A DNA stretch of 56,392 nucleotides, the filler included, from Sphacelaria rigidula (taxonomy: Eukaryota), in assembly GCA_964200075.2 (NCBI GenBank). It is 6 parts of 6 records of this genome, joined end to end, with 100 filler letters (N's around TTAATTAATTAA, not from the genome) between each part and the next. Parts side by side here need not be neighbours in the genome. Positions count along the whole stretch, not along the records: positions 1 to 9,316 come from CAXNAA020008765.1; 5 more parts are not named here. One strand, given 5' to 3'. The position numbers were made by a program, and so were the translations under genes. Positions 1-42,099 of the stretch are shown piece by piece (position 1 is the stretch's first letter; each line of letters opens with the position of its first letter). The notes under the pieces were generated by a model that was given only the letters and a program-made list of their open reading frames with translations, did no database searches and was not told where the DNA came from.

Positions 1-1637
1 GACCTGTCCGCCGCCGGTTATGTTCCGTGCGCGCCGGCTGGCGGTGTCGGTGGGGGGAACCAATTTCGATCGCTCTCATGGAGAGTTTTTCAGACCCATG
101 CTTTACCTTTTCATTGCGCTAGACCCAAAAAGAAATGTGGTTTGGAACAAGAACGATTAATAACACATTTGTCAACTCAGCCCGTAAGTCGTTCAATATT
201 GAGCGGGGATATGATTTTTGTCACGGAATGTGGAGCGGATGCCTAGTGTTTCCCGATCCCCAAAATTTGGGATTAAGTGTAGACTCGAATGAGCGGTAGC
301 ACGCGAAAACACTTTTGAAAATCGCTGACTACGAAAAAATTATTGACGTCTCCTATTTCAGCTGAAAACAAAGTATGTGGAGCAACAAAACGCGTGGACA
401 GGTGAAGTTTTCCCTGGGCAAGTCACGATCACACACACACGCCAGAACACAACGAAATCCCGCGAAGATGGGCATTTGCTTCAAGTTCTGGAACGCAGGC
501 CAAGAACGCTTGGGAGTAGTAATGGCACGAACAGAACCAGATGATGATGGTGAAAAACGACGGCGACAGCAACACGATGCAGAGCCATACTCGGAGGACG
601 GCCGGGGGGGGTTGTGCTCATGCAAAGGTTTATGTTGATGCATGCAGAGCTAGGACCCGTCAGCGCTACTATGAATAGTGACAGGCGGGAACAAACGTTT
701 TGAGAGTTATAAATACCTGAAGAGGGGAACACGGCATAAGATGATCGCGACATAAGTTTGCACGACTCGAAAATGCTCTACATTTGGCTGGGGGGGAGCG
801 ACACGGTTGGCAGCGGTAGTTCTTTCCACATTTACCATTCAGAGAAGGTAGATGCGAGTTTTATGTAGTTATGGTGTATGTCCGTGGTGTATGTCCGTAA
901 CCAATGTATCAAGAAATCGTCAACGAGGTATCGGCGGCGTTGGCCACGGGTGCAGAAGCACGGGGCAACCATAACAATACCTGGGGGGGAAAGGTGGGGG
1001 CGAGTCAGACAGAGAGAGAAGGAGAAGAAGAGAAATCGAGCGAGAGAGAGAGAGAGAGAGAAGGGGCGTCAGATGCGGCAAATAGCGTCGGAGGCGGGAG
1101 ATACATGGAACGGAGATTGGCGAAAAAACTGAAAATACGACAGTGGCATACCGGGGGGGGGCGGAGTGTGTGGTATACAAAATACAGAACGGACACACGC
1201 GGGGCGCGAGAAAAATATCAATACCCAGTTCATTCTCGAAGAACATCGGAGAAACGTGGTGGATCTGGGTTTGCAGAGTGGTCATCGCAAGGAGATGTGC
1301 GGGTATGAAAGAGCCGTTAAGACGAATGAGACGGAGGATAACGAGGTACAAGATGGGGGTCTAGAGACAGATGCGGCACACAACGAAACACCCTCCCACC
1401 TATGCTGTTCTCGTTTTTGAAGGGGCGAGATGTAGTAAAACGATACGGTGATATGATTGGGGAGAAGGGTGTGTGGTATGCACGGGATGGTGTACAGGCG
1501 ACTACAAGGGTCATGACCTCTCGTTCTCTCAACAAACATGGTTCGCCGCGACAGTGTCTATCGGAATAACTTCATGAAAATTCGGACTCGTGGAACTGGG
1601 GAGTGTGAAACGACCTGCTCCACGTCGTTATTTCCAT

Positions 1638-1715
1638 CCCCCCCTTCATGCGATTCAATGGTCAAACGACTAAGGCAAGCAACAAATGAGTACGCCCCCC
1701 CCCTTCATGCGATTC
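1638..1715 (+). mobile_element. Extremely 5'-truncated (~40 bp) LINE 3'-end insertion flanked by a 19-bp target-site duplication
   Basis: CCCCCCCTTCATGCGATTC occurs at 1638-1656 and again at 1697-1715. The insert AATGGTCAAACGACTAAGGCAAGCAACAAATGAGTACG matches 9417-9485 and the 3' end of the LINE RT at 17878-17950. Confidence 0.8.
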
Positions 1716-1719
1716 GCCA

Positions 1720-4700
1720 AACACATCACGGCGCTTGGAGCTTGGTGATTGCAATACTGGTCCGGCGAAAACCCGGTGTGCGCCGTCTCGGTCTTACGAC
1801 TACAGCATGCAAAAACATGAACACATCCCCCTGCTCGGCCATATAACAACCCTACGGTGCGCCATTGCCTTTCAGGTGCAACACTGGACGCAAGTGAAGA
1901 TCATTGCCCCCACTTGGACATGTGGTGGAGGTATCCTTAGTCCGATCACGAAGGAGGTCGCACAACGAAGTCGCAGGGAAGTGGATGCACAACCGGCGCA
2001 CTTTTGTGCCCTCGCCGGTGCATCCTAATTTCCAGGGGACATTACATCAGCCATTTCATGGCACAACCGTTGCGGCGGTACGACTGATACCACGGGGTGA
2101 CCTTGATGCGCCTACTGGGTGTACTGGGGTGGACAGGGAGTTGGTGCCTCGAAGTATCACACACTATACCCTCAGGGGAAGCATTTTTGTCGGTGGTCTT
2201 CCCAGATGACAACGGTGCGGTGCTTCGTTGAAACTACGTGCAGTCTTAGCGATCTCTCTCCCTCTCTATTATTTCTCTGCATTTACAATGGGGGGGGTTC
2301 GGGTCAGCGAGGGGTGAATAGTGGCTTGGCAGCCTTGTAGAAATCCTCTCACGCATCTGAATTGCCCCGTCGCTGTGGTCAATCATGCAGGAGGTTCTTC
2401 CCTGGACAGTACAGGAAACCCGTAGGGGAAGGAGGTTACATTAGTCCAACGGATGACCAAGAAGCGGTGGCGTTCGGGTAAAACAAATGTGTTGCATCGT
2501 GCAAGTGGTACGTTCATAGAGGGAATGGTCTACCGGCGGTTATCAGCAGATTGTCCGTGGTCAAGTTTTTTTCACCGGATAATCGGGATTGATTTGCCGC
2601 TCTCACCATTTCCTGAAGGTGTTGAATGCCTGGATAAGCAGAAAGACGGCGCTTCATGGAACGGGGACGCGTGTTTGAACACCTCTGACTCGGGTAATAT
2701 CGCGGTAAGGTCGATATATGGTCGATACGTCAAGAATCGCAGCCTAAGGATATCCCTCTGTGCATCGCACTTTATTCTGTGCCGAGGGTCCGAATTATTT
2801 GCATGAGGTCACGTCAAAGCCCACAGAAGCTCGCTTTGACTATAAAGACACGACGCTTTATAGCGACAGGCATTCAGCGGTACAGTCCCGACGACTGGTG
2901 AGCTGTGGATGTCAAGGTTCGACTTAGTGCGCATAAGTGGAACCGATAGCAGTTGGGGTTGGTTCTCGAACAAGGACGGGTGTGTTGCGAGTTCGCGGCG
3001 CGTTCCCTTCCGAGGCTCGTGTGCTCGAGGCAACGAATGCCGCAGCGTCTGCATCGGCAGCCGAAGGCGGGAGCGCCGTTAGCTGGATACGCGTCGGGTT
3101 CAAGGTCAGAAGTTCGTCCTGGTCGTCATACTACATTGGCGATAATGTCGATTATGATGCAACAAGGAATTCATACCGCGTTAGTATGTGCTTAAACCTC
3201 GGGTCGTACAGGAGGCCCGACGAGCTAGCTCGGCAATAGCCGGCATTCATCTAGAAGCGATTCAACGAGAATGTTCGTGCAGTGGCGCAATGATGCCATA
3301 TACGCGTGCTATATTGGGGCATTGGAGGGAATTAAAAAAGCGACGTCAGTGCATGAGGTACCAGAATGCTCCAGCGCGGTCAACGGTCTCAATACGGGAT
3401 GCCCGCGATCGACTTTAAACGTTGGGAACAGCACCCAGTACCATTACGCAGTTCCTCCGAATTTACGACTATATTGGAAAGGCAAATGCAAAAACTAAAA
3501 GGGAGAAACTGAAGGATTGATCACAAAAATATGTATAGGTTTGTGAGCAGGGATGTACAAATGCACATGACTGATCGGGAGTGAGCGTGATTCCCACACA
3601 GGAGACAATTTGCGTGCGTGGTCGAGCAGGATGCATGAGGAGCGGCACTTCCACGCCCACATTTCTTTTGGTTGCGATTTTTGTTCGCTTACTTCCTCTG
3701 TCTCATAAGTTAGGGTACCTATGGGCAATACGCTGTCTGGGTACAACCGTGCTAGTGAGGATAGTATTGTCGGGTTTCTCAGAAAGATTAAACAAATACG
3801 AATCTAAAACAAAAAAAAACAGAGTTCTATTCCTTCGCCTCAAATGGGTTAAAACATACCCTATTTTGGCCTATTTTGGGAATATTTTTGAGAATGTTTT
3901 TTGAGAATGTTCTTGAGAGTTCTCGAGAAATACAAATGGTCCAAATTTAGTACCCTACGTGCCCACTACACCATTCTGGCGATGGACTCGCCCCTCAGCA
4001 CACCCCCACCTCGCAAACGGGGCGCCGAGATATCAGTTGGTGACCGATACGCAATGGCGACAAAGGTTTTCGACACTTTCTTTCCCGTGGGAAAGGCGTG
4101 AAATACGGCCATTTTTGCGCCGACTGATTTGTTTTCGGCCGTTCGTCCGCATGGTTCAAACAACGGCTGCAAGAAAAAAACACATGTTTTTTACTCGAAA
4201 AATGCCGAAGATTTCAACAAAAAGATTGAAAAACAGATCGGACACGGTTGAGGGCCCGTACCATTTCAGGTACCCTAACTTATAAGATAGAGGAAGTATT
4301 TATTTATCATAGCTTGGTGATACGTATCTTGTTGAAGCATATGGTTCAGGTTCATAACACGCTTTAACCCTCGCTGGCAATGGTCCTGCAGCTGGATCTT
4401 ACAGGGCTTTCTCAGAGATTTCGACGGGCAAGGTCATGACATGAGGGGTACGAGGAACCTGAGGTCAACAGCTAGTTCACGGCACACTGTGGAATGTGTT
4501 CGCAACGAGTATGATGAGCTCTTTGACCACAAGGGTGGGTCATCTGGATCAATTCAAATGAGAATGATCCGATTTAACAAATAACCGATCCAAACAGTCA
4601 ACGGGCTATCCCATTGACTACCAGCATCGTTTCTGAACACTTTCACCGGCTGATGGTCCAGGGACTCCAACACTATGGACGCGGGAGCGGTGTGCGGGTT

Positions 4701-5480
4701 CCCCGATCGTCAGGGAATGCTTCCGAGATAAACCATGTGTGTTTTCAGGAAATTTACAGGTCAGTCAGCAGGTCTACAGACGGGTGAATTTTCCAGTTTG
4801 ATTGATTTGGTTGATGGAATGATCCATCAAGTTTCCCTACAGATCGCCGAACATCGCCCACCTGGACCTGAAGCCGATTTTACCATTTCACTATATCAAC
4901 CGTAGGCGCACGAAAGAGACGGTGCTTTTTGTTTTCTCGGCAGTCTTCGACACCTACCCAATCCCTATCGTGCTGCAAAGAGCTCCGCACTGGTGTTGTA
5001 AAATACTGAGCAGAGATGAACCACCATACGTGTGTGCTGTGTACAAGGGAGGGCGAGGGCAACGTACTCCTGTATTGCTAATATCTAGATGCTGATGAAA
5101 CAAGTCTGTCTGTACGGTAGAGCAGCAGCGGGCACCACAGAGTATGATTGAATTGTTGTGTCATGCAGCGTGATATCGAAACACGAAGGAGGTGCGCCAT
5201 CAACGCGTTGAAAGTACCTAGACTGCTCAAGCAAGGCGGGAAGGAAGTATGTGTTGTGACTCCCTCGCAGCATTGGTGGTCGCCAGCGTGCACCACGTAC
5301 TTACGCGTGACAGCAGGTACAGCCCACTCGACACAAAGAGATTGCACACTCAGGTGGCTTGCCAACAAAAAACGGTCTGGGGTCCCCAAGCACTAATTTC
5401 CTTCAAATTCCCATCATTCCTTTTCTCAGATAAATTGCCGTACTGCGCCACTTGGAAGACAACACATCTCGAGCCAAATT
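1720..5480 (-). mobile_element. Highly degenerate non-LTR retrotransposon (LINE) ORF2 relic, APE endonuclease then RT, interrupted by a MITE
   Basis: Minus-strand translation has many stops. APE-like remnants: VAQYGNL..KEISAWGPQTVFCWQAT (~5440-5350), AMFGDL* (~4855, GDFN-like), PSCHDL (~4440, SDH-like). RT-like remnants: LTYRPYIDL (~2720) and GQFRCVRGFLQGCQ (~2365-2325). Boundaries are approximate. Confidence 0.45.
3692..4296. mobile_element. Tc1/mariner-type (Stowaway-like) MITE, 605 bp
   Basis: 29-bp TIRs CTTCCTCTGTCTCATAAGTTAGGGTACCT (3692-3720) and AGGTACCCTAACTTATAAGATAGAGGAAG (4268-4296) with 2 mismatches. TA flanks both sides (3690-3691, 4297-4298). No transposase ORF. Confidence 0.85.
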
Positions 5481-5934
5481 TGACAACGGGCGATGTTGGA
5501 CGATCTGAACAGGGCTGGCGGTCAGAGGATCGAGAAACAGACGAGGCAGTAGAGCAGATACAGGAAGGCGAGGAACAGGCGGTGGCCTGGCAGCTGAGCA
5601 ATTTCGTTTGGACGCCGTCCTACTGTCTGGTCGAGGACCTGGGTGCGCACAGGGGGGTTAAATGAATACACCATCACCATCGCCTGCACTCCGCAGATGC
5701 AACCAAGGAACTGGTTCATCCCCTTGCCCACGAACTTGTCTCTTGGTGATCGGGGCTTACTAACTGCGGGCCCTCCTACGGGCAGTACGTGTGGATCTTG
5801 AGTGGATACGGTACTGACATACAATACAGTCTGTGCGCGCTAGGACGGGGCGGAGCCTCACAGATTCTTCAAGGACGACCCCCTAGATTAATACTGCCCA
5901 TGAACACGCCGACCACGAGGAGAAACTGCGCAAG

Positions 5935-6200
5935 TCGGACAGCTCGTGAGCTAGCTCACCTGTGAGCTGTAGCCCACTTGTCGTCAAACATGTGCAGATG
6001 ACCTGCGCCCGATAGCTCGTCCAGGACAAACATACGTTGCTGATGTGGCTCTCACAGCTCACCCCTGACCAGACATGCGTAGCTCATGCAACTCTCATAG
6101 CTCACCCACGGAAAACATGCGTAGCTCATGTAGCCCTCATAGCTTGGTAGGGAGCTACGCTGAAAAAGAGCTAGCTTGGGCTACCGGGAGCTGATCTGTC
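5935..6200. repeat. AGCT-rich degenerate ~43-bp tandem repeat
   Basis: Units of the form ACATGCGTAGCTCATG..CTCATAGCT at ~6073 and ~6115, with further decayed copies on both sides. Confidence 0.6.
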
Positions 6201-6724
6201 TGATGTGTGAAAACCTTTAACATAGTTTTGCAATACTGACTTGATTGGGTGATTTCTTGTAGTGCATTAGCTGATCTCTCAGGGACCCAGGCGCGGCCTC
6301 AAGATAGATGTACCCAAGGGCAGCAAAACAGAACGCTTACTTGAATAAAAAAGCGGAAAAAACAAAATATACGTAAAACGAAATGGAACTGGAAAAAAAC
6401 AAAACAAGAACAGAAACAAGGTCCCACCAAGCAGAGAGAGGAAATGCACAAACAAGCTAGGAAGGAATGTAGGCATGTATATATAACGCGAAACGACTCA
6501 AGATCGAACAAGATTGCAACCAGAATCGTAGCTTCGCCACAAAGCTACTGTCGAAGCCACCGATCCCTGCTGAAAGGGTATTTTGCTTGGATTTTGGACT
6601 GCTGACAACAACGCCCATTGGCGACACGTTGTGGCCTAACTTGGGCGGCTGCTTCACTGGGATATAGTCGACAGCATGGGAGCACCGAATCTTAGTCAGC
6701 GGTCCCGTGTAATAGCAGCAGGGG

Positions 6725-9230
6725 GCTGTCGCTACCGCCTCACCCAGGTGTGTAGCCCGCGAGCAATGTGTGGATAGGCCCAAGGGTATTGTGCCCGATC
6801 TCGACGGTTCAGAGGTACAACGGGCTAACTTCGCCGCATTCACCTTTTCAGTCGACGTTGGCCAATAGGACCAGCGAACAACGGGAGCACAAGTCGGCCA
6901 CACGTCGACACATGACTACGAGGTTGGTACCTAATCAGCTCTCACCCGAGCTTCCAACAACCCCGCACGGTTGTGGAGCGTGGCGGCCAAGCTTGGGTGC
7001 TCCGGGCCGAGAAGCTTCTCCTGCATCGCCTGGCACTGCTCGTAGAGTGCCTCGGCCTCGGCCTTTTTGCCCTGCAATGTAGTACACGACGCAGAAGCAG
7101 CATACAGCAATCAGCATACGACCTACAACGGCAGCGAGACCCTCACGTCACTGCCCCGCTGAGGTGTGCAGTCAGCGAGCCATGTGTGTACAGGGTCAAG
7201 GGTACTGTGCCCGATCTCGACCGCCCAGAGGTATGGCGGGTTGGTATTACAGTATTCATCATATCAGCCAACACTGGCCCATATCACCAGCGAACAACAT
7301 GACGACACACAATGTCGTGCACGCGTCGACACATGACCACGACAAAGTTCCATCTGTTTTCACCTGAGCTTGCAACAACCCCGCACGGTAATAGAACGTT
7401 TTGGCCAAGTCCGGGTGCTCAGGGCCGAGAAGCTTCTCCTGCATCGCTTGGCACCGCTCGAAGAGTGCCTCGGCTTCGGCGTACGCGCCCTGCAATGTAG
7501 TACACGACGCAGAAGCATCCTGCCATGGTCAACATCGGACCCACAACGGCTGCCAGAAGCTCGCGCCACTACCCCGCCCAGGTGTGCAACCGGCGAGCGA
7601 TGTGCGTACTGGATCAAGGGTACTTTGCCCCATCTCCACGGCTTAGAGGTGCGACGGGTTGGAATTGCCGCGTTCACCCTGTCAGTCGACCTCGGGCCAC
7701 AGGACTAGCGAACAACGCGGACACCAACATGTCGCTCACACGTCGACCCACGACTACGACAAAGTTTCAACGACTCTCACCTGGGCTTGAAACAAGCGCG
7801 CACGGCTACCCATCGTTGCAGCCAGGTCAGGATGCTCTGGGACAAGAACTTTCTCCAGGATCGCCTGGCACCGCTCGAAGAGTGGCTGAGCCTCTGCGTA
7901 CTTGCCCTGTAATATAGTTCGCGATGCAGAAACATTCCAGAACATACAACGTCAGACCTCCGTACAACGGTGGCCCCAAGCTCGTGCCACCGCCCCTCCT
8001 AGGTTTACAGCCATCGAGCGTCATGTGTGCAGGGCCGAGGATACTATGCCCGATCCCGACGGCTCATGGGTGCATTGGGTTGGCCACGCCGCACTCACAC
8101 TGCCATTCACCGTTGGCCAACAGAACCAGCGAAGAGCATCAACACCACACGACGCTGATCACCCGTTGACACACGACTGCGATAGAGGTACAACACTAAC
8201 CTGGGCTTGCAACAACCTCGCATGGTTGTGGAGTGTGGCGGCCAAGTTTGGGTGTTCCGGGCCGAGAAGCTTCTCCTGCATCGCCTGGCACCACTCAAAA
8301 AGTGGCCCCGCCTCGGCGTACTTGCCCTGCAATACAGTACACGACGCAAAAGTAGCCTGTAACAGTCAACGTCGGGCCTACAACGGCGGAGAAACGCTCG
8401 AGTCACCGCCCCGCAGGTGTGAAATCGGCCTCCGATGCGTGCAAAGGCCAAGGGTACTAGGCCCGATCCCGATGGCCGAGAGGTACGAGGGATTGAACTC
8501 CCCGCATTCACCCTCTTGATCAACACAGGTCCACCAGCGAACAGCATCCAACACCCCACACAGCCCTTCACACAAACACACGACACCGAAAACGTTCCAT
8601 CGGCTCTCACCTGAGCTTGAAACAAACCCGCACGGTTATGGATCGTTGCAGCCAAGGTCGGGTGCTCGGGGCCTAGAATCTTCTCCTCGATCGCCTGGCA
8701 CCGCTCGTATAGTGGCTCAGCCTCAGCATACTTGCCCTGCAATGTATTATACGAAGAACCAGCCTAGAGCAGTGAACACCAGACCCAAGACCGCCGAGAG
8801 ACATATGCGCTACAGCCTCAGTGAGGTGTTCAGCCGGCAAGTTATGTGTGTACAGGGCCAAGAGTACTCTGCCCGATCTCGACGACTCAGAGGTACAGCG
8901 GACTGGTCTCACCGTACTCACACGGTCCGCTCACGTTGGCCAATAGAATCAGCGAACAACATCGACACCACACGAAGTTCACACGTCGACACACGTCTAC
9001 GAGGGAACTCCGTCAGTTTTTACCTGAGATTCCAACAACCGCGCACGGTTACCCAGCGTTACCGCCACGTGTGGGTGCTCAGAGCCGAAAGCCTTTTCCT
9101 GTATCGCTTGGCACCGCTCGTACAACGCCTCAGCCTCTGTGTACTTGCCCTGCCATGTAGACACGCGGCATAAGCATTATGTTGCAGTCAACGTCCGACC
9201 TATTGCAGCAGCAAGGACACTTCCTACGAT
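6725..9230. repeat. Tandem ~415-bp exon+intron unit, about 6 copies
   Basis: Exon spacings are 418, 417, 420, 410 and 413 bp. Introns share blocks such as AGGTGTG, GGCCAAGGGTACT.TGCCCGATCTCGACGG, GTTGGCCAA..G.ACCAGCGAACA and CACGTCGACACA. Confidence 0.9.
6946..9149 (-). CDS. Six TPR-repeat exons (42 aa each) of a probable NB-ARC-TPR / kinesin-light-chain-type TPR protein; partial gene
   Basis: Exons in transcription order: 9149-9024 GKYTEAEALYERCQAIQEKAFGSEHPHVAVTLGNRARLLESQ; 8736-8611 GKYAEAEPLYERCQAIEEKILGPEHPTLAATIHNRAGLFQAQ; 8326-8201 GKYAEAGPLFEWCQAMQEKLLGPEHPNLAATLHNHARLLQAQ; 7906-7781 GKYAEAQPLFERCQAILEKVLVPEHPDLAATMGSRARLFQAQ; 7489-7364 GAYAEAEALFERCQAMQEKLLGPEHPDLAKTFYYRAGLLQAQ; 7071-6946 GKKAEAEALYEQCQAMQEKLLGPEHPSLAATLHNRAGLLEAR. 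Each is exactly 126 bp, phase 0, stop-free, with a CAG acceptor and GT donor. The NB-ARC part is not in the window, so that assignment is inferred. Confidence 0.92.
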
Positions 9231-9316
9231 ACCCCCCTCCCCCCCCCCCCACCCCCCTCCCCCCCCGGCATCGCGAGGCGCGAGGGGGGCGGAGCGAAGG
9301 GGGAAAGGAACACAGA

Positions 9317-9416
9317 NNNNNNNNNNNNNNNNNNNNNNNNNNNNNNNNNNNNNNNNNNNNTTAATTAATTAANNNNNNNNNNNNNNNNNNNNNNNNNNNN
9401 NNNNNNNNNNNNNNNN
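9317..9416. other. Artificial contig linker (N44-TTAATTAATTAA-N44); also at 18733-18832, 28148-28247, 37563-37662, 46978-47077
   Basis: Identical 100-bp spacer with stops in all six frames. The flanking contigs are 9315-9316 bp, consistent with a size-sorted concatenation. Confidence 0.98.
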
Positions 9417-11762: not shown

Positions 11763-11971
11763 CGCGGTCAGGTGGAAATAATATTTCCGCGAACTATTTG
11801 TTTCGTTTTCCTCACGTCACCGACCTATATCCCATTTCTGTGTAATGGTACCCTCATTACACACGGTGCGGTCAGGTGGAAATAAAAAATCCGCGATCTA
11901 TTTGTTTCGTTTTCGTTACGTCACCAACCTAAATCCCACTTCTGCATAATAGTACCCTCGTTACACACGGT
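11763..11971. repeat. Two-copy ~105-bp tandem duplication
   Basis: GCGGTCAGGTGGAAATAA...TATTTGTTTCGTTTTC...TACCCTC.TTACACACGGT occurs twice in tandem. Confidence 0.85.
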
Positions 11972-18669: not shown

Positions 18670-21489
18670 AGGCCGTCGCTGTGGATTACGCGCACCGCCG
18701 GGGTGAGGACCATGAAGCCCTTGGCATCGACCNNNNNNNNNNNNNNNNNNNNNNNNNNNNNNNNNNNNNNNNNNNNTTAATTAATTAANNNNNNNNNNNN
18801 NNNNNNNNNNNNNNNNNNNNNNNNNNNNNNNNATGCACGATATCGTGCTATTTCACGATAGTAATGCTGCCGGCAAAAAAACACTGCCCTGTCTGTACTG
18901 TCTGTCCCTGGTTTTACGGTCGTGAAAAGGATGCATGGAGTGCTGCAGCAGTTATGCTGTTGGCACTGTACTGTACATACAACATTGGTAACTACTTTTG
19001 CCCTGACTACACTACGCTTGTATGCGAGGAGTGTGTGATGGAGCACTGACTGCACCGTTGCGGGTGCCGTGTGCGAGGAATGTGTGATGGAACGACAAAT
19101 CGCAGACTGAGAAAAGTCTCTGCGAATCGCCATCGATTCGCAGAGAGATTCCGCAAAACCCCGTTGTCTGCGATTTGTGGCTAATTTCAAGAGGCTTTTT
19201 TCATGAAAAATGGCCCTATAAGGTCGCGTTCTGAAAAACGTCTCTGGAGACTGATCAAAATGACTTTATTTCGAAACGTGATCATCACTGCGATAAGAAC
19301 CAATCTCACTCGCTAAACTTCAGGGTACGGGGCGCGCACAGAATTCAGAATTGCAAAGGTGGGACGAACAAACATCAAAGAATAGCCCCTCCAGAAGTGT
19401 GCACCACCTGGTCGATTAGGACCTCACTTGATTTGAGTATAAATATCAATATTCGGATCTTTAGACGGGCTGACAAGCCTCAACCGCGCCTCGCGTGCGC
19501 AGAAGACGTTTTCGTCAAATCGGTACCTGCGGCGCCGTTTTGAGGTCTGCCAACGCCACACTCAATCCAGGAGACGCTTCACACCCCCCTCGCACGATGA
19601 TTTTCGGTATGCCTTGGGTTGGGGTCAGGGTTGGGGTTAGCGTTGGGGTCAGCGATATTTAAAAAATATAGTTCCGAGAAAATTCTTCATCGACCAAGTG
19701 AACACAGCTCAAGAAAAAGGAAGAGCGTGGCTCGGAACAACAGTGACAAAATGTACGGAACAGAATAACGGCTGCAAGTGTTCGACCTTGTTGGAGAAGT
19801 CCCGAACGAGCGACAGCCATGTTCGATCGAGATGCCCCTCTCTTCGACGATCACTCGTGTACTGTACACAACTGTACTGTGCTACCTGTGCCGTGCTCTA
19901 CTGTGTCGAGTGCGTTCACGACGACCAAAAGCCACCTGGCTGCGGGACTCTCACAGCACGTGGGCAAGATACGAGCATAAACGTGCCAAAACAGGAAACA
20001 AGGTGACAACTACTCTACGCGTGCTGTCTCTAGTATATTTGTATGATCAAACTATCCCAGTACATACAGTCCATTACACGTAGGAAAACAGACGACACAA
20101 GTGACATCAGAGGTGATACCCAAATCCTCCTGGTGATATAAAATACCAAACTGATCCTACCGTCCATTTGAATCACTATATTCACTCCGCACTCACTCTG
20201 ATACACTCCCTCACCTCTGCAAAAGTTGATATTGCAGCGCTGCTTCGCTGCTTCCCGCTATCAGCGTCGCCCCACTGTTTTTTTCAACCGACTTCTCCTC
20301 GCTTTTCAACATGTGTGTATATTTGCTCAATACTCTGTGTCCGGACCCGCAGTGGAGTTTCGGAGATTAGCTACAAATAAAATAGTATGACACACTCAAA
20401 CATAAACTCTGGCCACAATCAATCCGGCAGAAGAACTGCAGGGTGATTGATTTCTGCCGTGCGACATGACAAGCATCGTCAGAAATACTTTGGATGCACA
20501 CGGTATATCCTCTCTGCGAGCAGTCGCGTCCATGCGATAATCAATGGCAAGGAATGTTGATTATCCTCAAAAAGCTGAAGCCCATTTTTTGACCGAAGCG
20601 TGTGTGAATGTTTGTGAACGGTGACAGCGCAACGTACACCCGCGCGACCAGGTGTATCCTTCTTTGGTCTCTCTCGTGCCCTTAGATTATCGACGCCACC
20701 ACCATTGTTACTAGCTGGTGTACTGTACTCTATTGTTGTTCAATGTCCTCTCGAAATGATGTTATCCGCAGTAATGTGCAATCCTTCCGCGGTGAGGTAC
20801 CATCATTGAGGGGAGATCGGAGTAGAGTTCGGGATGATACTGTCGTACGTAGTAATACAATTTTCAAATATATGTGGAACGAGATCTACGAGCCGGAGGC
20901 GTTGTGAAAATCGGACATGCGTAACGCACGGATTCCACAGATTGGGGGGTCCACGCGCAGGATCCAATCACATCAAGGGAGTAGCGGAAACGGGTGTCGA
21001 CGGTTGGTCCTTTTGACGCCTGCCGCATCAACTGCCCGTTCACCGTTCACGAGCATCTCGCGTTGTGTAGATGCTTGTATACTGAGGAGGGTATCTGGTC
21101 ATTTCAGCCTTCAGTATATGGCTTGATCCAACAGAAACAAGATACTGCTGCTGCTGTGCACCACACTCGTCCGGCCCAAGTATACACTGCATTGTCGCCG
21201 TGAGATCCATTCGCCGTTTTCACACAGTCAAAAGTGTACAGACCACAATTGCATCATCACCGGACCAGGTGTTACTAACGATGGCGCCCTTGCTGTTGGT
21301 GACGGAGTCTACGGAGCAGTTATTACATAGATAAAGCAGCTGCTCCGGTCGGCTGTCAACGAGCGCAGGCAACGCCGTTGTTGCAGGTATCGCTCACGAA
21401 GATTCCACAGAAGTGAGTGGAAGGAGCAACGTAGTCTCGCATCAACGGCGACACCGAGGCGAGGACACAAGTTGCACTAGCGTCGAGTA

Positions 21490-26942: not shown

Positions 26943-26994
<52 letters not shown>

Positions 26995-27905
26995 CATTAA
27001 TTGATTGATTAATTGATTAATCGATTAATTGATTAATTGATCCATTGATTGATTGATTCATTGATTGATTCATGGTCGCACTGTGACTGACCCCCCAGGG
27101 GTCATGATCCAGTCGTGGTCATTATCCACATGATAGATGTACCCGAGACAAAACAAAACTGAAACACCTGTTGAAGAAAAATCAAGGAAAAACGGAAAAA
27201 AAGGTAGAACAGCCCAACAGAGAGTAGTGGACAGAGAAGAAGAAGAAAAAAGATAGCATGAAAAGAATATATATATATATGTAAAAATGACCGGCTTCTG
27301 CCGCATGACTTGGGTGGAAAAGGTCTTGCGCAGAAACCGCACCCATACTCACTGGTAGAAAACAAAAGGCCGTGTGAATAGAAGGGCGGTGTAGAGCCAC
27401 TGCGTAGCAACTCGCCGCTGCTGTTCGACGACAAGCATGGGGGCGGAAATTCATTGCGAGTGGTCGAAAATTGATGTTTGGTCTCCCTGGAGTGTGAATG
27501 CCCGTGAGCACTTATATTGCGGCGCTACACATTCCACGTCATAAACGCCTGAACCCCTGAAAACTCGAGTCGTATCCGGGTGCGAAACAGAGTCCCCTCT
27601 TCGTTGCCGGCACGACCAGAGCGCAAGATGACACATGCCAAACGATAACGGGGATAGCCGTACCGGCGCAAGAGCTGCGGCCCGATACATGGTACCTTGA
27701 AACCCCCGAAAAGCTCGGGAAAACAGCGGCGGCGGTGACGGCGGGTACCGCTACGGGAAAGCAGGACGACCGCAACCGCAGAAACGATGGGGGCGGCGTC
27801 AGCAGCGATGGACTAAGAAGGTGTGGCAGAGCGAGACCCCCGTTGTTCAAGCCCACGTCGCTTGCGAAACCGGGCAACAGCAGCGCGACGAGACCCACGG
27901 GCGAG
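21490..27905 (+). CDS. Six-exon hypothetical protein, 3' incomplete: small N-terminal beta/alpha domain, long low-complexity region, RanBP2-like zinc finger
   Basis: Exons 21490-21632, 24039-24311, 24647-25405, 25880(or 25877)-26168, 26542-26813, 27620-27905. All introns are GT-AG with mutually consistent phases (2,2,2,0,2) and no stops. N-terminus MGVAKPGSCGGELLVVIDVQSKKQGAVKEIFVRDGDNAYRLAEDFVL..HGLG; later WCCPKCGVENRAQDDTC. Confidence 0.75.
23698..23818. repeat. (CTA/CTG)n microsatellite (intronic)
   Basis: Read directly; it produces spurious poly-L and poly-S ORFs. Confidence 0.95.
26947..27300 (-). mobile_element. Retroposon 3' end with (AATC)n tail; diverged copies at ~6240-6470, 30742-31000, 47690-47920, 52550-52780, 55640-55760
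   Basis: Shared core (G)GGTACATCTATCATGTGGATAATGACCACGACTGGATCA, preceded by a pyrimidine-rich segment and followed by GTCAGTCA and ATCA repeats. A long (ATTG)n tract lies at 26947-27070. Confidence 0.65.
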
Positions 27906-30484
27906 GTGAGCCTCACCAGATAGGAAGTACTTCAGATAGTGAGTGTCTGGGAGGGCTCGCTTGTTAGACCGAAAGGGAACCACTGTACATCAAACCGTCC
28001 TTAGAACCTGTTTCTCGGATCGGTCTGTGGTGGAGGGTGTGGGGGAGAGGGAGGTGCGCGCGGGGGAGGGGGGGGGGGGGGGGACTCATGATCTTGCATG
28101 CCGTAGTCATACGACCATCGACCTCGCATCCCCTCAAAACCGGGACGNNNNNNNNNNNNNNNNNNNNNNNNNNNNNNNNNNNNNNNNNNNNTTAATTAAT
28201 TAANNNNNNNNNNNNNNNNNNNNNNNNNNNNNNNNNNNNNNNNNNNNGTCCTATTTTAATCAACCATGAAAACATGGGATTTGCCATCTGTACGTAGCAT
28301 CCAAAACCAACAACTGTGAAGACGGTTTGATACCCGCTGGGACTCCCTGAGTTGCTTTATCGTCATTGCGTTCGCCCCTATGAAAAATAATATCGGCACG
28401 CAGTGCTGTCCACACATTGTTGAAACCTTCATGGTGTGTTAGCTGCGTCGTCTTGAGTCAAACGAACAAGCCGCTTCTCAAACCTATCATTTCTATCCTG
28501 TAGTTGTCGCATGCTATTGTGAATTCGAGCACTCTGCGACAAACGCGGTGCGATCTGCGCTGCAGAGTGCCTGAACAGTTGTACTGCTGCATACCGTGTT
28601 TTAGTCTGGACAATTTTGGGGTGGGATCAAAGTGCTGTCGAAACAATGAAGGTTGAAACAATCGTCACGTGACGACTGCGCAGCTGTCTGTTGCGTCTTC
28701 TCTGGTACTTCTGGTGTAGTCGGAGGCTGTAATCTGGGAAGACACGCCAGGCGGGTGCGTGCAGGTTGGGGCAAACAAACTGAGCCATCACGGAGCTGCT
28801 GTATCATCCTCGGTGATCGATGGTAGCAGCTGCCTGTCTCGCAGCGGCGCAATGTGTGGGCCAATCAAAGCTAGTGTTGGACTCATGTTGAACTCGTTTT
28901 TCTCATCTGAGTGAAGAAAGGTGCCCACATTTTGGTGTATTCAGATATTCTGATATGTCAGAAAACCTTTCCACTCAAAATTCTTGCCCCTCTCTGTGGG
29001 CCCAGTGCCGTTAGTTACACCGTTACATCATTACGCCAATACAGCACTACACGACTACCATTGTAGCTTGCGACTTCAAGTGACTCAGCACAACTCCGGC
29101 CTTCTCGGATTTCTCGATCCCTTGCAATGTTCCACCCTACTTAGAGTCACACACGCCCAGCACACGCCCAGGCGGTAGCATGGTCGCACACGGCCTTTTT
29201 GTGGGCCATGCGCATGGTTTCGAACCTGTCAAAGCTATCCCTGCTGAATCCATGAGCGTCGTTGTTTGGAGGATCTCCCTGCCCGTCTCCCTCATGTGTG
29301 CCTGTGTGCGGGGAGGTTTTCTAATGCCAATGGAGTGCTTCATTTCCTGTCATGTATTGTCATGTATTGTGAAAGAACCCGCTTTTATTCTCCGCATGCA
29401 CAAAGGGACGTATTCGTGTCCAAGCCGTCAGATGACAGCATGGCAGCAGTAGAAAAGTCAAGAAGGCTCGAACGGCCGGAACGTCAGGGACCCCACTGAT
29501 GGACGTGTTACAGGTAGATCAACATTTGATGTGAATAATTGTATACGCTATTGCGAAAAAATACCGTTGTCCGAACCTGAAAAAATACCCTCAATCTGTT
29601 CGGGGATTTCTTCTTATTTTTGTGGTGGATAGCCCGTGACAATGCGGACGGCGGACATCCCCTTGAAATTACAGCTGGCTGTCTGCGGATGAAAACACGT
29701 TGGGGTTACGTGCAGTGCTTGTTGCTTTGATGCATCTAAAACCATGGGTAGAAACTCTGAGGCCTTACCCAATCTACCCGAACTCCGGGTAAAGTAAATA
29801 CCCGGATATTATACCCGACCTGCCCTTGGCCTCTTCGGTCGAAAAAATGCGGAGGAAAGGTACAAAGAAAGAGCCACTAGACTCCTATCTTGCAGACCAC
29901 CACGCCAGATACCACCCGTTAACAGAACTATGCAAACCCCACACACTTCATTCTCAGCTACCACCGCAACCCTGCAGCATAGAGCACTAATTGGGCACAG
30001 GTATCCATACACTGCAGTAGTTGGGTATGATATGTTTATTCAATGTTGGCGAGAACTTGAGCATCTTTCATACCAGGGATCGGTGACAGAACTGTGTGGT
30101 GGGGTAGACGACCGACTTGCGTACACTCAACAGTGTAGGTAGTACAAAGCTGCACGTTGTTCAAGTCCTTTTCAAGTCGCACTGTAAGCGGATGGCACAG
30201 ATGGTCCTGCGCTGCCTACACGGCACGTTGCCCGCTTCTCTTTTACATCCTACTGTATGAAACACGCACACACTCTCAGGGACACTGAATGTATGAATCC
30301 AGCGCAGACAGTAGAGGACTGTACTGTGGACAAGCGAACAAGTATCGCTTCACGAATTTCACCGTCGGTTCTCGATCGAAAGCTTGCATATTCGCTTGGA
30401 CCCAACTCGCGAGAAATGAACGATTTCGCTCAAATCAATTCTACCGCACCATTTTAACGATGAAAAAATTGTGTGCAGAGACAT

Positions 30485-37562: not shown

Positions 37563-37662
37563 NNNNNNNNNNNNNNNNNNNNNNNNNNNNNNNNNNNNNN
37601 NNNNNNTTAATTAATTAANNNNNNNNNNNNNNNNNNNNNNNNNNNNNNNNNNNNNNNNNNNN

Positions 37663-39484: not shown

Positions 39485-39753
39485 TGTTCGGGCTGTGTTA
39501 TTGCAGGTAAAATGATGCTATGTCCGGTCTGTGTTACGGTAAGTCAAATATGAAGGATGGTCAGCTACTCTATTCCATGTCTATGTCCGGGCTGTGTTAT
39601 GGTAGGCTAAAGGAACAGGATGGTTAGTTACTCTATTCCATGTCTATGTCCAGGCTGTGTTATGGTAGGCTAAAGAAACAGGATGGTTAGTTACTCTATT
39701 CCATGTCCATGTCTGGGCTGTGTCATGGCAGGTTAAAGAAAAAAGGGGATTAG
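39485..39753. repeat. ~61-bp minisatellite, 4-5 copies
   Basis: Unit GGCTGTGTTATGGTAGGCTAAAG.AACAGGATGGTTAGTTACTCTATTCCATGTCTATGTCC. Confidence 0.9.
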
Positions 39754-40115
39754 TGTGGGAGATATCCCCTTGCAGTGACATATCAGAGACTGATGTTACA
39801 CATGTACACAGACCGAAGGCAAACAGGTACGAGGTAGGAACGTTCCGGAAGGACAAGATTGCCCGAGGACCCTGTAATGCCAACGAAACTAGACAACTCG
39901 GGGTGATGCCAGGAAGAGCCTAATATTCAGGACGATCCAACATCCCCCGAGGAACTCGGTCGCCTCCAGCGACCACTCTATGTCTGACCCACTTCTTGCC
40001 TACATCTCACAAGAGGAAACCATCGTCAGCTTCGGAGTTCCTTCGGCATCAGGACGACATCTCTTGGGACAGCCTCTGCCTCAGTCTGTTCCCCCTTTGA
40101 TACGTCCTCCTTACA
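39754..40115 (+). repeat. Putative 5' LTR (362 bp)
   Basis: TGTGGGAG...CTCCTTACA imperfect terminal inverted repeat. It starts where the minisatellite breaks off and is followed by a PBS. Confidence 0.6.
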
Positions 40116-40116
40116 C

Positions 40117-40138
40117 TGGCGACACCAGATTAGAACCC
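40117..40138 (+). promoter_or_regulatory. Primer-binding site complementary to a tRNA 3' end (Ser-like, tentative)
   Basis: TGGCGACACCAGATTAGAACCC begins 1 nt after the LTR CA. Its reverse complement GGGTTCTAATCTGGTGTCGCCA resembles a T-loop plus acceptor stem plus CCA. Confidence 0.65.
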
Positions 40139-40176
40139 AAGTAAGACATCTAATAGTTGGGCACACGTCTTTCACG

Positions 40177-41988
40177 ATGCCGAGAAAAAAGTCCGCCCAC
40201 AAAAAATCCACCAGAACAACTACTCAGGGAAAAGCCACCGCGAAGACCCTCCAACAGTCAACCGCAACCGTCACACCATCAGCTTCCACCTCGGCGGCGG
40301 TTTCGGCAGAGTCCAGAGGCGCAGCACAGTCAGTAATACCTGCGCCGACCGACACAACTCTGCCAGCTCAACGCCCGTATAGCCACGAGGAGGAAAGCGA
40401 CAGCGACAACTCGGAGGACTCCGAGCGGAGCACCGATATCCGTCAGGTATCCACCGGCAGGTTTGATGTCCTTCGCGACCCCACCAACCTATCCTCATCC
40501 TCTACACAAAACCCTATGCCACAACCCACCGTCAAAGAAAAGGCAGCAGAGCTCGCTTATAGGGCGTTGGAGAGGAGTGACGAGGAGGGCACGGAACCAG
40601 CTCCGTGGGTGATGCAAGCTTTGGGGTTTTCAGTACCGCAGGAACAGGGAGTTTCACAGGTATCGAAATCGGGCAACCCAGTAGCGTCGGAAGTAGAACA
40701 TTCAAGTGACAATACGATGCTACAAAACAATACCAGTAAACCCCAGGATAGTGTCAACGATCCAGTCGATAGTTTCGAAGTCGAACTGCCTAACACTACG
40801 CCGATCCAATCCACAGAGAGCTCAGGGACTTTGACGTTAGATCCGCCAACAAGCCTCACTAGCGTACAAGAAAACAGCCACAACATAGAGCCTCTGTCCA
40901 GTTCAGTGCTGACTCCGCCATCGACAAGCCATAGTCGCAACATGAGAACTCAAAAAATTTCGATGAAACAATCGGATCTTCCACCAACGTTAATCCTAGA
41001 GGGAAAGCGGAGTGAGGACGTACCAGCAATTCTTGATGCGTTCCTCAATCGAGTTAGGATTCATGCCCCTGACGATTGCACAGAGTCCACAGTACAACGG
41101 CATGCCATAAAACACTTACCACTTATTCTCAGAGGATAAGCAGAAAAGCTATACACCCCTCTCGGAAGCGGAAAAGTAGAGTGGCGTCCACTAGCCGTGC
41201 TGCAGGACCTCAAATCAAGAGGAGAAGATACCGCACCCATCGCCCCGAAAACATGGACAGAATGGGTAGCGGCCTACACTCATCGCTTCTCTCCACCAAA
41301 CCAACTAGCACTGTTAGCCCGTGCGATAGCCGATCTGAAACAAAAGGAAGATCAAAACGTAGACGACTATGCACTGGAGTGTACGACCTCGATGGACAGA
41401 TTCGTGACCGAGGCCTTGCGGGTGAAATTCCCTGGCCACGACACGCTTCGTTTCATAATAGACGTGATCACAACAGCAGCATTTGAGACCGGGCTCAAAC
41501 CCCATATCAGAGTTGAAATGGTGAGAGAAGATAGTACGCTCGACTTCCAAACTGCGACAGCACGAGCGAAAAAACACGAACAAAACAATCTTCGCACATG
41601 GCCAAACCAAACGGGAGACACTCCCCATGTCTCGGCCGCAACTGTAAATTCCCCACGTCCACAGCTAGCGGAAATGATAGCCGATCATGGCGCAATCCTC
41701 ACGGATCTTCAGTCGCAGTTGAAAGCGATCAAAGGAGAGAGAGGGAGAGCGGAGAAACGGTCTGCTAGCAGAGACAGGAGCGCGAATAGATCAGGGGGAG
41801 AGTTGAAAAAAGTACGCTTCAAAGACAGTAACGATAAGAGTACATCCAACGACAAGCAGTTGAGCGGTAAAACGAAAAAGTCGGTCCGTTGTGAGTACGC
41901 ACCATGCAGGTACAAAAACACACACGAGACAGCAGATTGCCGCCTTATGCAAAGCCATGTAGAGTTTGCCAAAAAATACAAACCGTGA
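40177..41988 (+). pseudogene. gag: Gag (frameshifted at ~41135-41195)
   Basis: ORFs 40177-41139 and 41197-41988. Capsid-like segment WTEW..RFSP..LKQKEDQNVDDY..FETGLKPHIR; C-terminal CEYAPCRYKNTHETADC knuckle. Confidence 0.85.
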
Positions 41989-42099
41989 AGGCGCCCAAGA
42001 GAGGACCCCTCGTCTGATCAGGGCAAAAACCGTAAATCCTTACGTAGAAAATCGAGGGAAACAGAAAGATGCGAAATCGTCAACCCTCTGGCTCGTAAG

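Follow-up and report, generated by a model that had tools for sequence, protein, structure and literature searches.

A tandem array of one-repeat TPR exons in the brown alga Sphacelaria rigidula, probably the 3' end of an NB-ARC-TPR-type STAND gene

In the available text of Zambounis et al. 2012 (PMC3341825), 126-nt exons encoding 42-aa TPRs are described at 13 of 24 Ectocarpus NB-ARC loci, together with inactivated TPR exons that lie on the coding strand within the introns of such loci, and stress is laid on a highly dynamic shuffling of the TPR exons. The same text also describes other repetitive TPR loci, pseudogenes at 5 of the 24 NB-ARC loci and high birth-and-death rates. For brown algae more widely, the accessible part of PMC11378527 cites Teng 2023 (Plant J 114:246) for the shuffling of exons and alternative splicing in NB-ARC-TPR genes, and states that there are no reports of somatic recombinant loci. 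As far as these two sources extend, the summary given in a first-pass annotation of the DNA studied here, which covered NB-ARC-TPR and ROCO-LRR architecture and the proposals of shuffling and splicing, is accurate, and the one-exon-one-TPR layout, the intronic dead TPR exons and the proposals of shuffling and alternative splicing have all been published before (PMC3341825; Teng 2023, as cited in PMC11378527). A role as pathogen receptors of brown algae has been proposed for the family but never demonstrated.

Here, we describe one more example, found in a window of 56,392 nucleotides (the whole stretch of DNA analyzed) that consists of six unrelated ~9.3-kb chunks of the Sphacelaria rigidula assembly. 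The array is probably the 3'-terminal TPR sensor part of a brown-alga-type STAND gene on the minus strand, most likely an NB-ARC-TPR gene, and the new detail that it offers is a readable duplication unit, composed of a live and an already-dead exon, with measurable age and selection.

Anatomy and reading frame of the array

A scan for 126-nt open stretches bordered by AG and GT recovered six intact TPR exons on the minus strand, spanning 6946-9149 (E1 to E6; Table 1), each with 42 codons, without a stop, and each encoding one 42-residue kinesin-light-chain-type TPR. All six have a CAG acceptor directly 5' and a GT directly 3', and because they begin with a GG. codon after AG (6/6) and end with CAG (5/6) or, in the last exon, CGG before GT, all are phase 0-0; being symmetric and of equal length, they keep the frame in any subset. 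The first-pass annotation had described six intact phase-0 126-bp exons of one 42-aa TPR each at ~415-bp spacing, all of which are present, and its count of 64 subsets is correct as 2^6 for symmetric phase-0 exons, an arithmetic figure with no observed use. The strand was absent from that annotation.

Start-to-start steps from E1 to E6 measure 413, 410, 420, 417 and 418 bp, Tandem Repeats Finder (TRF) reports a period of 418 bp over 6743-8754 (4.8 copies, 70% matches, score 1198), and a separate repeat search returned six copies in register. E1, the array's first unit, is the most divergent of the six exons; the intron upstream of it resembles the array introns over only ~55 nt (9161-9202) and is then followed by a poly-C tract at 9232-9264 (TRF).

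Pfam models TPR_12 and TPR_10 match all six exon peptides at E<=0.001, with bit scores of 37.5 for E1 (curated cut-off 30.1) and 32.6 for E2. When a single 45-aa brown-algal TPR was compared with the 56-kb window by tblastn, the six exons matched at E 1.5e-14 to 5e-11, and the best match outside the array locus had an E of 1.2. The aligned exons have GKY in four of six, residues E5-A6, L9, Y/F10, A36 and L38 in every copy, and a terminal Q in five. Open reading frames antisense to the array (7890-8516 and 8520-9170, plus strand) and seven others in the same chunk match no Pfam family.

Introns nearly as conserved as exons (67% against 78%) might suggest a non-coding satellite or RNA-gene array with accidental open frames. 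We give this reading practically no chance, and regard it as already refuted: variation is highest at third codon positions (0.224, 0.127 and 0.317 at positions 1, 2 and 3), TPR_12 matches all six exons, Rfam gives no match at E<=1 over 1-9316, and the covariation term of the intron consensus fold is unfavorable (+1.73). An intronic snoRNA or other RNA gene was dropped on the same Rfam and fold results.

Table 1. Positions of the array's features along the window, with the basis of each
Feature	Position	Strand	Basis
E1, TPR exon, 42 aa, phase 0	9024..9149	-	AG/GT, open frame; TPR_12 E 2.8e-9 (best of the six)
E2, TPR exon	8611..8736	-	AG/GT, open frame; TPR_12/TPR_10
E3, TPR exon	8201..8326	-	AG/GT, open frame; TPR_12/TPR_10
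E4, TPR exon	7781..7906	-	AG/GT, open frame; TPR_12/TPR_10
E5, TPR exon	7364..7489	-	AG/GT, open frame; TPR_12/TPR_10
Last coding exon: E6 TPR (6946-7071), read-through codons and stop	6931..7071	-	translation, contigs
Intron I1, 287 nt	8737..9023	-	exon scan, unit alignment; contig joint spans I1
Intron I2, 284 nt	8327..8610	-	exon scan, unit alignment
Intron I3, 294 nt	7907..8200	-	exon scan, unit alignment
Intron I4, 291 nt	7490..7780	-	exon scan, unit alignment
Intron I5, 292 nt	7072..7363	-	exon scan, unit alignment; contig joint spans I5
Intron 5' of E1, its 3' end	9150..9316	-	repeat family D6, TRF; N run from 9317
Likely 3' UTR	6400..6930	-	U6 alignment; contigs followed down to 6400
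Dead TPR exon in I1, LYLRAIEIGEKTLGP subtype, in-frame stops	8836..8919	-	E 3.4e-7, single HSP, 57% identity/28 aa; TGA at R position
Dead TPR exon in I2	8447..8524	-	E 3.7e-4; TCG at R position
Dead TPR exon in I3	8016..8108	-	E 0.012, weakest of six; TGA at R position
Dead TPR exon in I4	7592..7681	-	E 3.7e-4; TAA at R position
Dead TPR exon in I5	7174..7257	-	E 3.9e-5; TGG at R position
Dead TPR exon in terminal intron-like copy	6758..6847	-	E 1.2e-6, 53% identity/30 aa; TGA at R position

The live-plus-dead unit and its age

The array consists of tandem copies of a ~418-bp unit, every copy with a live TPR exon and a dead one. The latter lies at the same position in all six intron copies (tblastn), is of a different repeat subtype from the live exons, and is detectable at the protein level only, DNA-level similarity between live exons and introns being no higher than in shuffles (best scores 16-24; shuffle mean ~19). 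Two or three dead exons retain a CAG acceptor. The codon of the conserved arginine is a stop in four of the six copies, and the set of codons (Table 1) would fit a single CGA>TGA change in an ancestor that preceded amplification; since the nonsense codon is common to the copies, the dead exon would have died before the unit was amplified. We propose that repeated tandem duplication acted on a unit in which one exon was live and the other, of a different subtype, was already dead. The unit probably goes back to a two-exon A-B period with short introns, and its copies would since have accumulated differences slowly while purifying selection acted on them.

The units are old and under purifying selection. 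In the unit alignment, mean identity is 77.7% among exons and 66.9% among introns, with pairwise differences of 15-28% and 25-39%, respectively, and even the closest pair reaches at most 85% identity in the exon and 75% in the intron. Mean dS is 0.64 and mean dN 0.19, giving a ratio of means of 0.29 for these six short exons (pairwise dN/dS 0.15-0.64), and the intron Jukes-Cantor (JC) distance is 0.44; by this pairwise measure on six short sequences, an excess of amino-acid change among the cassettes is absent. Exon similarity correlates with upstream-intron similarity (r 0.62, a value reached by 6 of 120 permutations), which, as weak evidence, fits plain unit duplication. This copy of the array looks old and stable, with no active reshuffling.

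Transcript-like contigs, exon order and the gene end

Assembled contigs from several sequencing runs provide a view of exon joining. Among the runs that contain the sequence, one is labelled algae metagenome and the others carry a coded organism name. None is recorded as RNA; the RNA nature of runs X6-X9 is guessed only, and they are hence called RNA-like here; X1 is a DNA run. Clean joints in the RNA-like runs connect neighboring exons only, in genomic order, and both are absent from X1: E1-E2 (8735->9023, skipping 287 nt, with CT..AC ends on the plus strand) and E5-E6 (7070->7363; found in X6 and X7, it skips 292 nt and again has CT..AC ends). The E5-E6 contigs have 5 other letters in 76, on the E6 side, which makes an allele or a close paralogue their possible source. 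X6 record 12 (541 nt), the contig with the E1-E2 joint, covers 9023-9152 with 0 other letters, is joined to E2 and continues ~387 nt further upstream of E1; a piece exactly two 126-nt steps further upstream along this contig resembles E6, a likeness that points to probable additional TPR exons upstream. Matches free of other letters also cover E2 (X6 records 14 and 15) and, at E3, positions 8256-8329 (X7 record 23). In X6-X8 the intron bins of I2, I3 and I4 are without cover and no joint is listed across them, which counts as no evidence.

At the DNA level, the exon bins reach depths of 240-2400 where the baseline is 55-75, so that many paralogous exons share words with the array; 1-7 other letters are present in most RNA-like pieces, and one 1050-nt contig of depth 115 is clearly a paralogue's. 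These observations would suit a silent or decaying pseudogene remnant whose exon RNA signal comes solely from expressed paralogues. We consider such a remnant quite improbable, as six frames and twelve splice sites are intact despite a dS of 0.64, pieces with 0 other letters lie over E1, E2, E3 and 6400-6885, and the contig with the E1-E2 joint agrees letter for letter with the most divergent exon over 130 nt. The word shares of three further runs (X3 0.65, X4 0.59, X5 0.28) are uninformative on strain differences or exon order.

The contigs also bear on the suggestion of the first-pass annotation that the exons are diversifying cassettes, with subsets or orders of E1-E6 actively combined by alternative splicing or somatic recombination into receptor variants. 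Equal-length, symmetric phase-0 exons would allow it, both the available text of PMC3341825 and Teng 2023, as cited in the accessible part of PMC11378527, propose it for the family, and four RNA-like joints depart from genomic order or the simple model (7062->7780, 7047->7363, 7493->6987 and 8330->6987). Each of these four, however, comes with 8-37 foreign letters or with sides of 18-35 nt, and they look like joints between exons of paralogues; one of them, for instance, has a G-K-Y start where E6 has G-K-K. No clean exon-skipping joint occurs in the RNA-like contigs, a search that is a weak test for combinatorial isoforms because contigs drop rare variants. In X1 the exons stand in the reference order, and the listed pieces are free of other letters. 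Both of its internal joints carry foreign letters, and one of them, 7093->8361, which does not fit the simple model, has a depth of 2603 against the baseline of 55-75; this indicates repeats elsewhere and suggests tens of related intron copies. Any two units differ too much for a recent exchange, dN/dS is low, and PMC11378527 states that somatic recombinant loci are so far unreported. Active diversification is thus unsupported by the divergence, selection and neighbor-only joints of this array, and we judge it very unlikely.

A joint variant of this idea, in which the array and unseen upstream exons would be a substrate for combinatorial diversity, with rare skipped or reordered E1-E6 isoforms or somatic variants invisible in collapsed contigs, and in which the conserved dead exons, some with a CAG acceptor, would be regulated poison exons tuning receptor level, is speculative and has a very slim chance indeed. 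If true, skipped or reordered variants of E1-E6 would amount to adaptive-like variation in a brown alga.

Under the preferred reading, a TPR sensor part in a fixed order, the exons spliced in genomic order would yield a continuous TPR solenoid. At its end, E6 is followed by four read-through codons (V R A D) and a TAG stop at 6931-6933, with the GT donor at 6944-6945 intact and apparently unused, and the region 6660-6930 (on through the read-through codons to 6945) aligns with the array introns as a seventh copy, one that is not spliced. Unbroken RNA-like contigs of depth ~4, on which the 3' UTR reading is based, run over 6400-6885 (X6 record 9, 0 other letters) and 6400-6955 (X7 record 16). 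An acceptor-like CAG (6657-6659) with an immediate TGA (6654-6656) was set aside as an alternative end, since contigs cross 6660-6885, and reach 6955, without a break. P0002, P0004 and P0071, the closest homologues, end right after an ordinary TPR; many full-length family members have a distinct C-terminal cap repeat (..LLERALSIR.K.LG..HP.T..), which tblastn with brown-algal proteins did not find within 6.9 kb downstream of the array. We infer that the array is the gene's 3' end, where E6 would read through the unused donor to the TAG and into a 3' UTR.

Relatives of the array and comparison with known systems

Brown-algal proteins head the matches to a profile built from the six exons (Ectocarpus spp., Scytosiphon, Sphacelaria, Pylaiella, Choristocarpus and unnamed EukProt entries), and among 34 brown-algal or EukProt matches picked by name from 120 matches listed, 20 carry PF00931 (NB-ARC), upholding the earlier assignment of the exons to the brown-algal one-exon-one-TPR class. 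Joined in silico, the exons align at 73% identity over all 252 aa to residues 573-824 of the 1108-residue P0002 (EukProt g8218.t1), which has NB-ARC at 162-405 and 12 TPR_12 stretches, at 71% over all 252 aa to P0004 (EukProt g6974.t1), whose N-terminus aligns to the NB-ARC region of P0002 (38.6% over 249 aa), and at 67% (alignment of 249-252 aa) to P0008, a named E. siliculosus NB-ARC and TPR repeat-containing protein. ERCQA-type repeats like those of the array occur in at least five copies in six brown-algal proteins, four of them with PF00931, and in 11 copies in both P0002 and P0004. The gene's own protein is absent from a collection of 5.8 billion proteins, where the best identity to E1 is 79%, and an exact 30-mer of E1 has 0 matches in metagenome contigs.

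Within the window, tblastn with 10 brown-algal proteins (8 NB-ARC-bearing) gave no match outside 6752-9184, and the array chunk ends at 9316, 167 bp upstream of E1. This would agree with a locus that has TPRs only, or with a gene fragment truncated on its 5' side, with no NB-ARC upstream, like the repeat-only loci proposed as shuffling reservoirs. TPR-only loci exist, because 14 of the 34 picked matches, some marked partial, list no PF00931 (P0001, for instance, has 1916 aa and TPR only), and the repetitive TPR loci, pseudogenes and gene turnover in the available text of PMC3341825 also lend weight to this reading. It is nevertheless unlikely in our view, given that four of the six ERCQA-rich, closest proteins bear NB-ARC and one more has an NB-ARC-homologous N-terminus, that six exons and their splice sites are all intact, and that a spliced, perfectly matching contig continues upstream. 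In the NB-ARC-TPR gene that we favor, further 126-nt exons would lie upstream of the chunk edge and an NTPase domain, if present, still further upstream, and the TPR solenoid would, as is presumed for this family, bind the ligand of a nucleotide-switch receptor.

By profile, the closest solved structures are kinesin light chain TPR domains (7ai4, 3nf1; best E 1.5e-24) and a Podospora TPR (4y6c), all of the 42-residue TPR_12/TPR_10 type (E 1.5e-24 to 1e-16), a likeness of repeat type only, which does not speak for shared function or orthology. P0002 and P0004 are the best protein matches and share the ERCQA-type repeat and the ordinary-TPR end, but belong to another gene and species, 79% being the highest identity of any match even when one exon is taken alone. 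According to its citation in the accessible part of PMC11378527, Teng 2023 concerns the same gene class and the same shuffling and splicing idea as the first-pass annotation. Brown-algal LRR-ROCO genes also have one repeat per exon and dead repeats in introns (PMC3341825 and PMC11378527, in their available parts), but with 72-nt LRR exons, another repeat and another NTPase; with the queries used here, no LRR was seen at the present locus.

The Ectocarpus NB-ARC-TPR genes, as described in the available text of PMC3341825, share with this locus the 126-nt phase-0 exon that encodes one 42-aa TPR plus linker, the consensus fragments GKYxEA[E/D]PL[Y/F] and LxNxAxLLxxQ (also given as LxNRAxLLxxQ), and intronic dead TPR exons on the coding strand, here in six of six intron copies. 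The present locus differs in being seen without NB-ARC, on a chunk that ends just upstream of E1, and in being built of a regular 418-bp unit that bears one and the same dead exon in each of six copies; the array is old, and purifying selection acts on it. The age of the units and the selection on them favor a slow history of tandem duplication over ongoing shuffling, and temper the 'highly dynamic' picture for at least some arrays.

Live exons and their relatives

The 56,392-base window is built of six pieces of 9315-9316 bases, cut by five linkers (44 N, TTAATTAATTAA, 44 N), and its order does not imply adjacency of the pieces in the genome; the TPR array lies within piece 1 (1-9316). Using a scripted scan of the minus strand for AG, 126 open bases and GT, we recovered six live exons, E1-E6, each preceded by a CAG acceptor, opening with a glycine codon and followed by GT immediately after its last base. 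Because they lie on the minus strand, which the first-pass annotation leaves unspecified, the gene runs from high to low coordinates. All have 42 codons and phase 0 at both ends, with start-to-start distances from E1 to E6 of 413, 410, 420, 417 and 418 bp; Tandem Repeats Finder reports a 418-bp period across 6743-8754, and a repeat search of the window returns the array as six in-register copies. Pfam TPR_12 and TPR_10 are matched by all six exon peptides, and differences among the exons fall mostly at the third codon position (0.224, 0.127 and 0.317 per site at positions 1, 2 and 3), as expected of coding sequence. The first-pass annotation's six intact 126-bp phase-0 exons, each encoding one 42-aa TPR at ~415-bp spacing, are therefore borne out, with a measured spacing of 410-420 bp.

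Elsewhere in the window lies a Ty3/gypsy-type LTR retrotransposon that is broken, its ORFs falling in different frames; a 383-aa ORF just upstream of it (39988-41136) has no Pfam match.

Coordinates of linkers, live exons and other features in the window
Feature	Position	Strand	Detail
Linker	9317-9416		N44-TTAATTAATTAA-N44
Linker	18733-18832		N44-TTAATTAATTAA-N44
Linker	28148-28247		N44-TTAATTAATTAA-N44
Linker	37563-37662		N44-TTAATTAATTAA-N44
Linker	46978-47077		N44-TTAATTAATTAA-N44
E1	9024-9149	minus	AG/126 open nt/GT scan
E2	8611-8736	minus	AG/126 open nt/GT scan
E3	8201-8326	minus	AG/126 open nt/GT scan
E4	7781-7906	minus	AG/126 open nt/GT scan
E5	7364-7489	minus	AG/126 open nt/GT scan
E6	6946-7071	minus	AG/126 open nt/GT scan
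Retrotransposon (position of whole element): gag	41140-46551	plus	PF03732, 3e-5
Retrotransposon (position of whole element): reverse transcriptase	41140-46551	plus	PF00078, 6e-24
Retrotransposon (position of whole element): RNase H	41140-46551	plus	PF17919, 8e-32
Retrotransposon (position of whole element): integrase	41140-46551	plus	PF00665, 3e-10
Tandem repeat	11764-11971		104 nt x2, 87%
Tandem repeat	39518-39741		63 nt x3.6, 87%; just upstream of retrotransposon ORFs
Tandem repeat	26945-27070		(TTGA)n x31

A profile built from E1-E6 was searched against the longer proteins of a 5.8-billion-protein collection. Among the matches listed, the top ones are brown-algal (Ectocarpus species, Scytosiphon, Sphacelaria, Pylaiella, Choristocarpus and EukProt entries), with bacterial CHAT-TPR proteins ranking after them. 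In the 34 brown-algal or EukProt rows chosen by name among the 120 matches listed, PF00931 (NB-ARC) is present in 20 and missing from 14. Joined in script only, for alignment to homologues, the six peptides align end to end with two EukProt proteins, P0002 (73%) and P0004 (71%), and with P0008 (67%), annotated as an E. siliculosus NB-ARC and TPR repeat-containing protein. P0002 carries NB-ARC at residues 162-405, then twelve TPR_12 stretches; Pfam found no NB-ARC in P0004, whose N-terminus aligns with the P0002 NB-ARC region at 38.6% over 249 residues. Six brown-algal proteins have at least five ERCQA-type repeats: four with NB-ARC, P0004 itself, and one that is a partial model. The nearest solved structures by profile are kinesin light chain TPR domains. 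The family assignment of the first-pass annotation is probably right, and a predicted NB-ARC in the gene bearing the array is fairly likely.

A unit of one live and one dead exon

Alignment of the six units shows that the introns are repeated as well as the exons, at a mean pairwise identity of 66.9% versus 77.7%, and tblastn with brown-algal proteins gave matches inside the array introns. Proteins of Ectocarpus, Pylaiella and Scytosiphon conserve a 45-aa repeat of the LYLRAIEIGEKTLGPDHPDLA subtype, and this single repeat finds a match in each of the six intron copies, always in the corresponding position (E values, scored as single matches without sum statistics, 3.4e-7, 1.2e-6, 3.9e-5, 3.7e-4, 3.7e-4 and 0.012); its best match outside the locus, in the 56 kb searched, has an E value of 1.2. 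These intronic TPR relics contain stops and frame breaks, and their conserved-arginine codons (TGA, TCG, TGA, TAA, TGG, TGA) form the pattern that a single CGA-to-TGA mutation in the ancestor, and drift thereafter, would produce; the second exon had therefore already died by the time the unit was amplified. Each relic starts ~105 nt past the live exon and leaves ~195 nt (126 + 69) to the next one, a spacing suggesting that the unit may once have held two 126-nt exons with short introns. No remaining likeness between live exons and introns was found at the DNA level.

Pairwise dS among E1-E6 is 0.28-1.12 (mean 0.64) and dN 0.13-0.25 (mean 0.19), giving a ratio of means of 0.29; the Jukes-Cantor distance of the array introns is 0.44. 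Comparison of all six units revealed no near-identical pair, the top exon pair reaching 85% and the top intron pair 75%. The array thus has the look of a tandem duplication that is old and has been maintained by purifying selection rather than shuffled recently, and it lends no support to the proposal of a diversifying system. Exon similarity tracks that of the upstream intron (r 0.62, reached in 6 of 120 permutations) and not the downstream intron (r -0.31), which hints weakly that each exon was duplicated together with the intron upstream of it.

Transcripts, paralogues and the ends of the gene

Part of the array stretch is present in 9 of the 11 sequencing runs listed. Four small runs are guessed to be RNA, none being recorded as such; three of these (X6-X8) and X1, the best DNA holder, were compared with the locus, all as contigs. 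X1 covers the stretch with no letters differing from the locus in the listed pieces. A joint from 8735 to 9023 in X6 skips 287 bases with CT..AC ends and removes exactly the E1-E2 intron, and one from 7070 to 7363 in X6 and X7 skips 292, also with CT..AC ends, and removes exactly the E5-E6 intron. Neither joint occurs in X1, which, for runs guessed to be RNA, indicates the presence of spliced RNA. The contig joining E1 and E2 (541 nt) has no mismatch to E1 and extends ~387 nt upstream, where a piece exactly two 126-nt steps further up is similar to E6 (7 of 74 letters differ); these contig coordinates point to at least three further 126-nt exons upstream of E1. Contigs with the E5-E6 joint carry 5 other letters and so could represent an allele or a paralogue. 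An RNA-like X8 contig (record 25; 1050 nt, depth 115) matches the E6 end (6945-7017) with 2 other letters and continues into a different TPR exon, suggesting a close paralogue more strongly expressed than this locus.

The RNA-like runs also contain four non-collinear joints (7062 to 7780, 7047 to 7363, 7493 to 6987 and 8330 to 6987), each with short sides separated by 8-37 foreign letters. Other exon orders of this locus would be an unlikely source, but one retaining some small probability; the foreign letters, read out, are ordinary TPR exon starts and ends that differ from this locus, and we take the joints as paralogue transcripts. In X1, depth in exon bins is 240-2400 versus a baseline of 55-75, and a joint from 7093 to 8361, linking the 3' ends of two array introns across 12 foreign letters, reaches 2603 against the same baseline. 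Many related exons and intron ends must therefore lie elsewhere in the genome, these families probably numbering tens of copies.

On the 5' side of E1, only ~55 nt (9161-9202) resemble the other array introns, followed by a poly-C tract and the piece edge. This poly-C/CCCCCCT tract (9232-9264; X1 word depth 3e4-3e5, many loose ends) is low-complexity sequence breaking contigs. Downstream of E6 stands a seventh intron copy (6660-6945) with no seventh exon after it; tblastn with brown-algal proteins found no TPR likeness below 6752, and ORFs in 1-6915 have no Pfam match. Past the E6 donor the frame stays open for four codons (V, R, A, D) before reaching TAG at 6931-6933. The closest homologues, P0002, P0004 and P0071, end right after an ordinary TPR, and the distinct cap repeat that terminates many other family members is absent at this array. 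Unbroken contigs in X6 (6400-6885, 0 other letters) and X7 (6400-6955, 7 other letters) support E6 as part of a terminal exon with 3' UTR and argue against splicing at 6945. A 42-nt unit repeated 3.1 times (6012-6144, 75% matches) lies downstream of the gene, possibly within its 3' UTR.

Comparison with published NB-ARC-TPR loci

Passages of Zambounis et al. (PMC3341825) describe a TPR domain of 42-aa exons (126 nt) in 13 of 24 Ectocarpus NB-ARC proteins, with inactivated TPR exons within introns on the coding strand, and successive phase-0 exons of equal length as almost restricted to TPR and LRR families; somatic recombination is presented there as the authors' hypothesis. In a passage of PMC11378527, Teng et al. 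2023 is cited for NB-ARC-TPR exon shuffling and alternative splicing, and somatic recombinant loci are described as unreported so far. As far as these passages go, both the class and the hypothesis of the first-pass annotation are thus already in print, and what this locus adds is only its tidy live-plus-dead duplication unit. It resembles the Ectocarpus NB-ARC loci, as portrayed in those passages of PMC3341825, in its 126-nt TPR exons and in the dead TPR exons within its introns.
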